Positions 1-20,376 of a DNA stretch of 25,575 nucleotides are shown here, piece after piece; the stretch's first letter is position 1; each line of letters opens with the position of its first letter. This stretch comes from Candidatus Bathyarchaeota archaeon. GTDB taxonomy: Archaea > Thermoproteota > Bathyarchaeia > 40CM-2-53-6 > RBG-13-38-9. The stretch covers positions 1-25,575 of the forward strand of contig JAGLGJ010000001.1 of NCBI GenBank assembly GCA_023144075.1. The letters are read 5' to 3'. The position numbers and the translations under genes were made by a program. Below the pieces are notes generated by a model. That model did not search any database. It had not been told where the DNA came from and saw only the letters and a program-made list of their open reading frames with translations.

Positions 1-132
1 CTTAACGTAAGCGCCATAATCTGAAATTCTTGTCACAGTGGCTATTACTATATCACCGAATTCAGGATATTCTTGTGTGGAGATACTGTTCTCCTCTTTA
101 TCACCGGATTCAGGATTTTTTTGTGTGGAGAT
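1..132 (-). CDS. eif2a: Translation initiation factor aIF2 alpha subunit, 5' end (partial, runs off window start; start codon non-canonical/uncertain: ATC at 132-130 or 84-82)
   Basis: Manual translation of the minus strand 144->1 gives EENSISTQKNPESGDKEENSISTQEYPEFGDIVIATVTRISDYGAYVK. YPExGDxVIATVxxIxDYGAYV is the S1-domain start of a/eIF2-alpha. It lies directly after rpl44e-rps27e, the conserved archaeal L44e-S27e-aIF2alpha order. Confidence 0.9.
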   Translation of the reverse strand, partial: MSTQKNPESGDKEENSISTQEYPEFGDIVIATVTRISDYGAYVK

Positions 133-144
133 ACTGTTCTCCTC
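49..144. repeat. Tandem direct repeat, 2 x 48 bp (49-96 and 97-144), 4 mismatches, covering the aIF2-alpha initiation region
   Basis: tatatcaccgaattcaggatattcttgtgtggagatactgttctcctc versus tttatcaccggattcaggatttttttgtgtggagatactgttctcctc. The last 24 nt are identical. Confidence 0.95.
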
Positions 145-339
145 CTAAGTTAAGTTCTGTAAAATTTCACCTTTTATCGACGCTTTTCCACCAGAGGGTT
201 CAGAGATGACTTCGTCACATACATTGCATTTAATTGTTATTGAGGATCTATCGAATATTATTTGTTCATTAGAGCATTTTGAACAACGTACTTGGAGAAA
301 AATACTTTCAGGTTTTGGGATAAGGCCTTTCTTCACCAT
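145..339 (-). CDS. rps27e: Ribosomal protein S27e (eS27)
   Basis: PKPESIFLQVRCSKCSNEQIIF...IKCNVCDEVISEPSGGKA, a C4 zinc ribbon. ATG at 339 preferred over the TTG at 348. Confidence 0.95.
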   Translation of the reverse strand: MVKKGLIPKPESIFLQVRCSKCSNEQIIFDRSSITIKCNVCDEVISEPSGGKASIKGEILQNLT

Positions 340-344
340 TATTC

Positions 345-623
345 TCAAGCTCCAATCTCTAATTTTCGTAATCTAATACCAGGGCTTTGAAATATATAAC
401 TACAGTTTTTGCATCGATACTTCAAAACTTGTTTCTTTGTAGTCTTTGCTGTACGTTTTAATTCAGGCCATTTTTGCCCACCATACCCATGTTTCTCTCG
501 TTCATGTCTTCTTACTCCTCCAGCCAATGCTCTTTCTCGGCCTTTCTTATAGAGGGTGATAGCATGGGGAGTATGATGCTTACATTTGGGACAGAATTTA
601 TTGAGTTCTTTCCTCATTTTCAT
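345..623 (-). CDS. rpl44e: Ribosomal protein L44e (eL42)
   Basis: FCPKCKHHTPH...HGYGGQKWP...KTTKKQVLKYRCKNC...GIRLRKLEI. Confidence 0.96.
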   Translation of the reverse strand: MKMRKELNKFCPKCKHHTPHAITLYKKGRERALAGGVRRHEREKHGYGGQKWPELKRTAKTTKKQVLKYRCKNCSYIFQSPGIRLRKLEIGA

Positions 624-746
624 ATATTATGCACCAAGCCGAGGCATAGTAACACCTCTAAGCCTTCTATTTATTCATTTTTACTGAGAGTCATGTATTA
701 CAGTAAGATTATTCATTCTGGCTGAAAACTTCTGTTGAATCTATCA

Positions 747-20141: not shown

Positions 20142-20376
20142 AACATTTGAAATGAATGTTGAGGATGTATTTACTTGGTTTCCACCTTTATGCCAGAGTG
20201 CAGCATATAGTAATATTGAAATGAAGATGATTGATGAAATGAATATTATTCCAATTATTTTCCTTTTCGATTTTTTTCACCTCTCACTTGGTGATTATTG
20301 ATATAATCTAAAAATATGCTCTTTTCTAGGATTATTAGTTAGTATTTCATTTAACTTAGAAACAGTATAGGTCTAC

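Follow-up and report, generated by a model that had tools for sequence, protein, structure and literature searches.

A conserved near-cognate codon at the probable start of aIF2-alpha in two families of Bathyarchaeia

In the genome of a Candidatus Bathyarchaeota archaeon, the reading frame of the initiation factor aIF2-alpha has an ATC where the initiator methionine is expected, a Shine-Dalgarno (SD) sequence shortly before it, and no usable canonical codon between the preceding gene and the first conserved domain. The sequence-only reading with which this analysis began had taken the ATC for the start codon, and very probably it is: it aligns with the ATG or TTG of other Bathyarchaeia, has an SD at 7-8 nt and has been kept in two families. 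I consider it likely that aIF2-alpha synthesis begins at this near-cognate AUC by way of the SD, and that the weak codon serves as a fixed translational step-down. A review of archaeal translation lists AUG, GUG and UUG as start codons (PMC7531240), and ribosome profiling in Haloferax set near-cognate initiation sites aside as possible false positives (PMC7261190). The literature searched contained no description of an AUH start (AUC, AUU or AUA) for a/eIF2-alpha.

The locus and its start region

The window, by which I mean the whole stretch of DNA analysed, comprises positions 1-25,575 of contig C1 in the MAG G000 (1.30 Mb in 251 contigs, 77% complete, 37% G+C). It carries the gene string L44e-S27e-aIF2alpha-Nop10, which is conserved in archaea and was recognised here from the ORF list and from related loci (Table 1). 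The contig end splits aIF2-alpha; C1 (window 1-21) and C35 (1-21) share a 21-nt overlap, and the joined gene encodes a normal protein with the C-terminus ...GHKIN. Homologues carry the Pfam domains S1 (PF00575) and EIF_2_alpha (PF07541), and residues 20-270 of a 275-aa query match PDB 1yz6 with E = 3.6e-57, with further matches to 3aev and 2aho. The match in another genome of the same genus, G001, was left out of the comparisons; it is a 26%-identical gene beside masked N.

Table 1. Features of the aIF2-alpha junction in the window, and other genes of the same MAG with putative near-cognate starts
Feature	Position	Strand	Description
rpl44e (eL42)	345..623	-	First gene of the string, ATG start; ORF list; Pfam Ribosomal_L44 in related loci
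rps27e (eS27)	145..339	-	ATG 339-337, TAG 147-145; in the aIF2-alpha frame; Pfam Ribosomal_S27e in related loci
Shine-Dalgarno AGGAGGAG	139..146	-	Overlaps the rps27e stop (T-AGGAGG), 8 nt before ATC 132-130; the clade's ancestral layout
Tandem duplication	49..144	-	48 nt, in frame, 2.0 copies; SD, 6-nt spacer, ATC and 12 codons
aIF2-alpha, 5' part	1..132	-	44 codons from the first ATC; remainder on contig C35 (L001:22-711)
ATC copy 1	130..132	-	More likely start in the genus; would add a 16-residue N-terminal extension
Second, weaker SD-like GAGGAG	91..96	-	6 nt before ATC 84-82; decayed to GAAGAG in G002 and G003
ATC copy 2	82..84	-	Counterpart of the ATG/TTG in other Bathyarchaeia; matches the N-terminus of solved aIF2-alpha in alignment; possible second start
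GTG, first canonical in-frame codon	34..36	-	ACT GTG ACA (V of 'ATV'), inside S1 strand 1
GATase	C31 (L166:57-638)	+	Putative CTG start
uL13	G000:C67:623-1057 (L168:24-458)	-	Putative ATC/ACG start; no canonical start before residue 28
Histone-deacetylase-family gene (HDAC)	C112 (L172:43-1101)	-	Putative CTG start
DsbD-like gene	C230 (L173:20-655)	-	Putative ATC start
GT4	C81 (L167:22-1101)	-	Putative ATA start

Read on the minus strand past the rps27e TAG, the junction runs GAG GAG AAC AGT ATC(132-130)...GAG GAG AAC AGT ATC(84-82) TCC ACA CAA GAA TAT CCT GAA TTC GGT GAT, and AGGAGG occupies 146-141, overlapping the TAG. As the sequence-only reading had stated, the frame holds no ATG, GTG or TTG from TAG 147-145 to GTG 36-34, and GAGGAG (96-91) lies 6 nt ahead of an ATC (84-82) at the expected Met position. 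Its premise that a/eIF2-alpha proteins begin a few residues before the conserved motif is borne out as well, residue 5 of the P. abyssi protein 1yz6 (REYPE) aligning with QEYPE of the query; a start is therefore expected 3-4 residues ahead of EYPE.

That reading had asked for proof of the ATC at both 82-84 and 130-132. An independent DNA contig of 945 nt (run X11) bridges the break between C1 and C35, covering window positions 1-661 and 284 nt beyond position 1, and differs from the window by a single mismatch at position 555, far from the junction. Contigs from the RNA libraries X15 and X16 are unchanged at 82-84 and 130-132, and a 729-nt RNA-library contig, which resembles the sister species G003, takes in part of rpl44e, rps27e, the junction and aIF2-alpha. 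The stretch was found in at least 14 DNA runs from about ten studies (cold seeps, marine sediments, a vent and the subsurface) and in metatranscriptome runs, and none of the runs checked had other letters at the two places. Both ATCs are thus confirmed by the independent DNA contig and by the RNA-library contigs. An assembly or strain artefact near the contig end can be rejected, since the duplication and both ATCs recur in G002, G003 and the X11 contig. RNA editing to AUG was also rejected: the RNA-library contigs retain the C, an observation to be read with the reservation that contigs hide rare variants and that carry-over of DNA is possible. In run X5, the Logan contigs break inside the 48-nt repeat.

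The junction has two ATCs because of the 48-nt in-frame tandem duplication (93% matches by TRF; 4 differences in 48 nt by manual count), which, together with both ATCs, is common to the three species G000, G002 and G003. Between the ATCs these species differ at three places (GAG/GAA, AAC/AAT, AAA/AAG), all synonymous in the aIF2-alpha frame. I somewhat favour the upstream ATC (132-130) over the downstream one (84-82) as the start in this genus, because the TAG-SD-8 nt-ATC layout is kept there, because the second SD has decayed in G002 and G003, because the differences between the ATCs are synonymous, and because a public protein of the sister species G003 (P0001, 275 aa; source of the call not shown) is called from the first ATC. 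The downstream ATC could serve as well in G000. Copy 1 of the repeat in G003 carries the letters of copy 2 (GAA TAT, not AAA AAT), which suggests gene conversion between the repeat copies.

Start codons across Bathyarchaeia

The comparison of junctions took in 40 relatives, 80 named Bathyarchaeia loci and complete samples of three families. All 20 readable junctions of families f1 and f5 have a codon other than ATG at the start position: ATC in 16, ATT in two, ATA in one and TTC in one. In f1 (16 species genomes, 8 genera) it is AUH in 15 of 15 readable junctions, with ATC in 12, ATT in G014 and G011, and ATA in G008; in f5 four of the five genomes have ATC and G019 has TTC. Most other Bathyarchaeia have ATG or TTG at this position. 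The near-cognate codon is therefore conserved in f1 and f5, and the relatives are not all ATG, an outcome that the sequence-only reading had named as favourable to its idea. The surrounding alignment reads I-S-x-Q-x-Y-P-E in f1 and M-S-T-Q in other families, with ATC-TCN opposite ATG/TTG-Ser. A tree of 90 aIF2-alpha rows groups f1 and f5 in one clade (UFboot 93, SH-aLRT 76) that has ATG at the start position in 0 of 18 rows, and 67 rows of the tree have a canonical start (44 ATG, 21 TTG, 2 GTG); tree rows are related, and such counts overstate their independence. No canonical alternative start whatever is available in 15 of the f1 and f5 rows.

The AUH codons are also the isoleucine codons, so that a conserved AUH could by itself be either a start or an internal isoleucine; the case for an AUC start rests on the absence of a usable upstream start and on a bias in the third base. 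Over 20 rows from f1, f5 and f6, this base is C in 17, T in two, A in one and G in none. Adjacent synonymous sites in the same rows are mixed (Pro T6/G8/C3/A3; Ser T11/G6/C2), with G in 30-40% of rows, and genome-wide ATT and ATA outnumber ATC (37% G+C). The C bias is not what would be expected of an ordinary isoleucine codon in such a genome. Of the AUH rows, 70% have an SD match of at least 5 nt; among ATG and TTG rows the shares are 16% and 33%. AGGAGG or GAGGTG stands 7-8 nt before the start codon across the clade. SD cores are otherwise rare in G000, where they precede about 5% of early ATGs (background 2%).

Family f6 retains the ATC with canonical codons beside it. Canonical codons near the ATC include a TTG two codons upstream (G004), a TTG directly after the stop (G005) and ATG GTG before the ATC (G028), and some have been gained, as a new ATG beside the SD at L161 and as an indel with a new in-frame ATG at L163/L164. 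In G019 (L014/L134) the SD-defined start position is occupied by TTC, which differs from ATG at two bases and falls outside the AUC-start model. Three genomes of family f7 carry CTG at the place of a congener's ATG, CTG TCC standing against ATG TCC (L142 of G035, L029 of G021, and L113, against L141 of G029), and G035 has no canonical alternative. Judged from these alignments, the f7 CTG is probably an independent near-cognate start in aIF2-alpha.

Were translation to begin instead at the internal GTG 36-34, or at some other downstream codon, the product would be a 243-aa factor without its first S1 strand, a loss that the sequence-only reading had pointed out and with which the 1yz6 alignment agrees. 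This GTG is the first canonical codon, and 17 public protein clusters of the genus are called from it, but ATC is not among the starts that these gene callers accept, the position reads GTC, GTA or GTT in relatives, and the GTG has no SD. Furthermore, the stretch of 20-plus codons upstream of it shows conservation of its protein sequence, which matches solved aIF2-alpha from residue 5 onward, and I regard such a start as very improbable. Even less credit is due to readthrough or pyrrolysine decoding of the TAG, by which an S27e-aIF2alpha fusion would be made and no start codon would be needed. The rps27e TAG does lie in frame, four codons before the ATC, in most f1 and f5 genomes, and aragorn run without introns calls a tRNA-Pyl (CTA) at G000:C157:758-847. 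Once introns are allowed, however, aragorn turns this gene into a tRNA-Arg (TCT) with a 12-nt intron, and no PylS reached the family cut-off in G000, G003, G004, G013 or G027, whereas the Methanosarcina control did. The common 12-nt spacing from stop to ATC arises because the SD overlaps the stop. Moreover, the G007 junction reads TAG GAG GTG GCC TGA ATC, with a second stop directly before the ATC, and the rps27e stop is out of frame in G006, G012 and G011 and is TGA in G005 and G008.

Initiation at the AUC, the reading preferred here, bears on existing annotation. In at least one relative the NCBI pipeline already reads the ATC as M (P0021, an NCBI-named protein). Most public calls in the clade are short by 16-32 residues and lack the first S1 strand, and alignments, structure models and marker-gene sets that use the truncated calls inherit the error.

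Starts of other genes

Across five genomes of the clade, ATG is the start codon of both aIF1 and aIF2-beta, and aIF2-gamma starts with TTG in f1 and with ATG in f5. The aIF2-gamma TTG (L156-L159) lies two or three codons past an upstream in-frame TGA in G000, G003 and G013; G004 also has TTG. All 20 rows of the AUH clade (f1 and f5 plus f6) have ATG at the start of L44e, and S27e starts are canonical. At the other end of aIF2-alpha, the TTG of Nop10 overlaps the TGA as TTGA (L001:~700-720), as it does in almost every Bathyarchaeia locus examined. Such overlaps are typical of termination-reinitiation, and translation of Nop10 is therefore probably coupled to that of aIF2-alpha.

I screened G000 for genes whose Pfam model extends far upstream of the first canonical codon and begins immediately behind a near-cognate codon that is itself preceded by an SD-like motif. 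At least five other genes need near-cognate starts (Table 1), and the start of aIF2-alpha is not exceptional in its genome. In the GATase, HDAC, DsbD-like and GT4 genes, the Pfam model starts 14-35 residues ahead of the first canonical codon. In uL13, the genus has ACG, preceded by ATC or ATA, behind TGAGGTGA, and this position aligns with the ATG/TTG of other genera (L174-L189); across f1, ACG is found only in this genus, CTG in two other genera (G004, G007), and ATG/TTG elsewhere. With several such genes in G000, it seems that the lineage tolerates near-cognate starts generally. Furthermore, uL13 is a highly expressed ribosomal protein whose start is apparently near-cognate, so that near-cognate need not mean low output in this lineage. 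Among the starts examined, that of aIF2-alpha is the only near-cognate one conserved across families. Two further candidates, CarA (C197) and Cdc6 (C206), were rejected; canonical starts suffice for them.

Over the whole genome, ATC, ATT and ATA are not enriched behind SD cores (ATC 1.7% against a background of 2.2%; in a second count, 5.1% against 3.4%); CTG (10%) and ACG (14%) are somewhat raised there, on small counts. At 20271-20280 of the window (minus strand), a GTG is followed by an A7 run, and a membrane-helix frame opens after an in-frame TGA without a canonical start. A run of A6 would join this frame to the GTG, and a homopolymer indel or slippage seems likelier here than a near-cognate start. 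Many tRNAs of the G000 MAG carry introns; aragorn recovers only 6-16 tRNAs from the assembly (77% complete), none of them tRNA-Met.

Proposed role and known systems

I infer from sequence comparison that the AUC initiates, that output from it is low, and that low output is the selected function. The AUC would be read by initiator Met-tRNA, with the 30S subunit placed by a strong SD that overlaps the rps27e stop (UAGGAGG, 8-nt spacer). Ribosomes terminating 12 nt upstream may add to initiation; in H. volcanii, 40-60% of reinitiation is retained at 13-14 nt (PMC10666635). The 48-nt duplication would have given the genus two SD-AUC units, of which the upstream one (132-130) is the likelier start. 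Within the rpl44e-rps27e-aIF2alpha-nop10 messenger, the weak codon would act as a step-down that keeps aIF2-alpha below the ribosomal proteins, and Nop10 output would likewise be lowered through the TTGA overlap with the aIF2-alpha stop. The f7 CTG, and the frequency of TTG as the start of aIF2-alpha in the class, would fit a general selection for weak initiation. An unavoidable by-product would be that aIF2-alpha synthesis depends on how strictly AUH codons are rejected, which in archaea is set by aIF1. In S. solfataricus aIF1 blocks AUU but not AUG complexes (PMC4705826), and aIF2-alpha output should therefore fall with rising stringency.

The sequence-only reading had gone further and proposed a feedback loop on initiator-tRNA stringency. 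In a widened form of this proposal the AUH start would tie aIF2-alpha synthesis to start-codon stringency, with homeostasis of aIF2 or of the aIF1:aIF2 balance, much as the AUU start of infC does in bacteria. Mutations in yeast eIF2-alpha (SUI2) relax start selection. The gene concerned encodes an initiation factor and has retained its near-cognate start at family level, with C retained and G absent at the third base, and this start reaches across two families where the near-cognate starts of uL13 are only genus-deep; in addition to the aIF1 block on AUU, there is the precedent of infC, whose AUU start gives autocontrol (PMC4705826). Yet the known discriminator, aIF1, has ATG here, near-cognate starts also occur in genes of the same genome that have no part in initiation, and the feature is confined to one clade while most Bathyarchaeia have ATG or TTG. 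RNAalifold gave no pairs, and hence no conserved RNA structure, around the start. Nor does simple negative feedback follow, since less alpha would mean less ternary complex and lower AUC initiation, from which positive feedback is predicted. The other near-cognate genes, the ATG of aIF1 and the logic of the ternary complex thus weaken the specific loop, which is not supported so far, and I think autoregulation unlikely. An equally unlikely variant would make the AUH start a sensor that couples the output of aIF2-alpha (and of Nop10 through the TTGA) to aIF1-controlled stringency, an archaeal counterpart of infC; were this true, the clade would be forced to keep initiation permissive, which would explain the scattered near-cognate starts in other genes. 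I give slightly less weight again to a neutral relic, in which start-codon selection was relaxed in the lineage, the ATC arose once by drift, and a strong SD suffices with no selected role. Several G000 genes do need CTG, ATC, ACG or ATA behind SD-like motifs, and canonical replacements do occur (L161, L163/L164). However, C stands at the third base in 17 of 20 rows and G in none, in 37% G+C genomes, while neighbouring synonymous sites are scrambled, and SD strength rises with codon weakness, which looks like compensation under selection.

A fixed step-down at the AUC is thus the reading I retain. At this junction a gene of the core translation apparatus has retained a near-cognate codon on the evolutionary time scale of families, under a constraint on the particular base and with an SD that compensates, and the comparative evidence argues strongly that archaeal ribosomes use AUH codons in vivo. 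The junction is also a defined sequence from nature on which the handling of near-cognate codons by aIF1, aIF1A and aIF2 could be tested.

The nearest proven parallels, infC and Deinococcus dnaA, are both bacterial. Going by secondary accounts, infC (IF3) has an AUU or AUA start: like aIF2-alpha it encodes an initiation factor, its AUH start is conserved, its operon also contains ribosomal-protein genes, and gene finders mis-start it. The difference, as those accounts give it, is that IF3 itself rejects AUH, and that changing the AUU to AUG abolishes control (Butler et al., 1987, as cited in PMC4705826 and PMC2830850), whereas aIF2-alpha is not the known discriminator in archaea, which is aIF1. 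Furthermore, the AUH start is conserved in two families for aIF2-alpha but in most of a domain for infC, and the archaeal machinery consists of aIF1, aIF1A and aIF2 with unformylated Met-tRNAi. In eukaryotes, the poor-context AUG of eIF1 and the uORF of eIF5 likewise tie synthesis of a factor to start-site stringency (Ivanov, 2010; Loughran, 2012; both as cited in PMC4705826). As described there, however, eIF1 uses an AUG in a poor Kozak context, initiation involves scanning, and the regulated factors are themselves fidelity factors.

In Deinococcus, dnaA (like rpsL with its CTG) offers a parallel at the level of the codon: it has ATC-Ser, conserved among congeners, with ATG elsewhere, in a lineage with several non-canonical starts (PMC2830850). 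That case is bacterial, is of genus or family scale, and has its start proven by N-terminal proteomics, whereas the start of aIF2-alpha is placed by sequence comparison. Within G000 itself, uL13 and the GATase, HDAC, DsbD-like and GT4 genes resemble aIF2-alpha in having a near-cognate codon behind an SD, at the place of the ATG in relatives, and a protein truncated by gene callers; those five are sporadic, whereas the AUH of aIF2-alpha spans two families with a base-specific constraint (C, never G).
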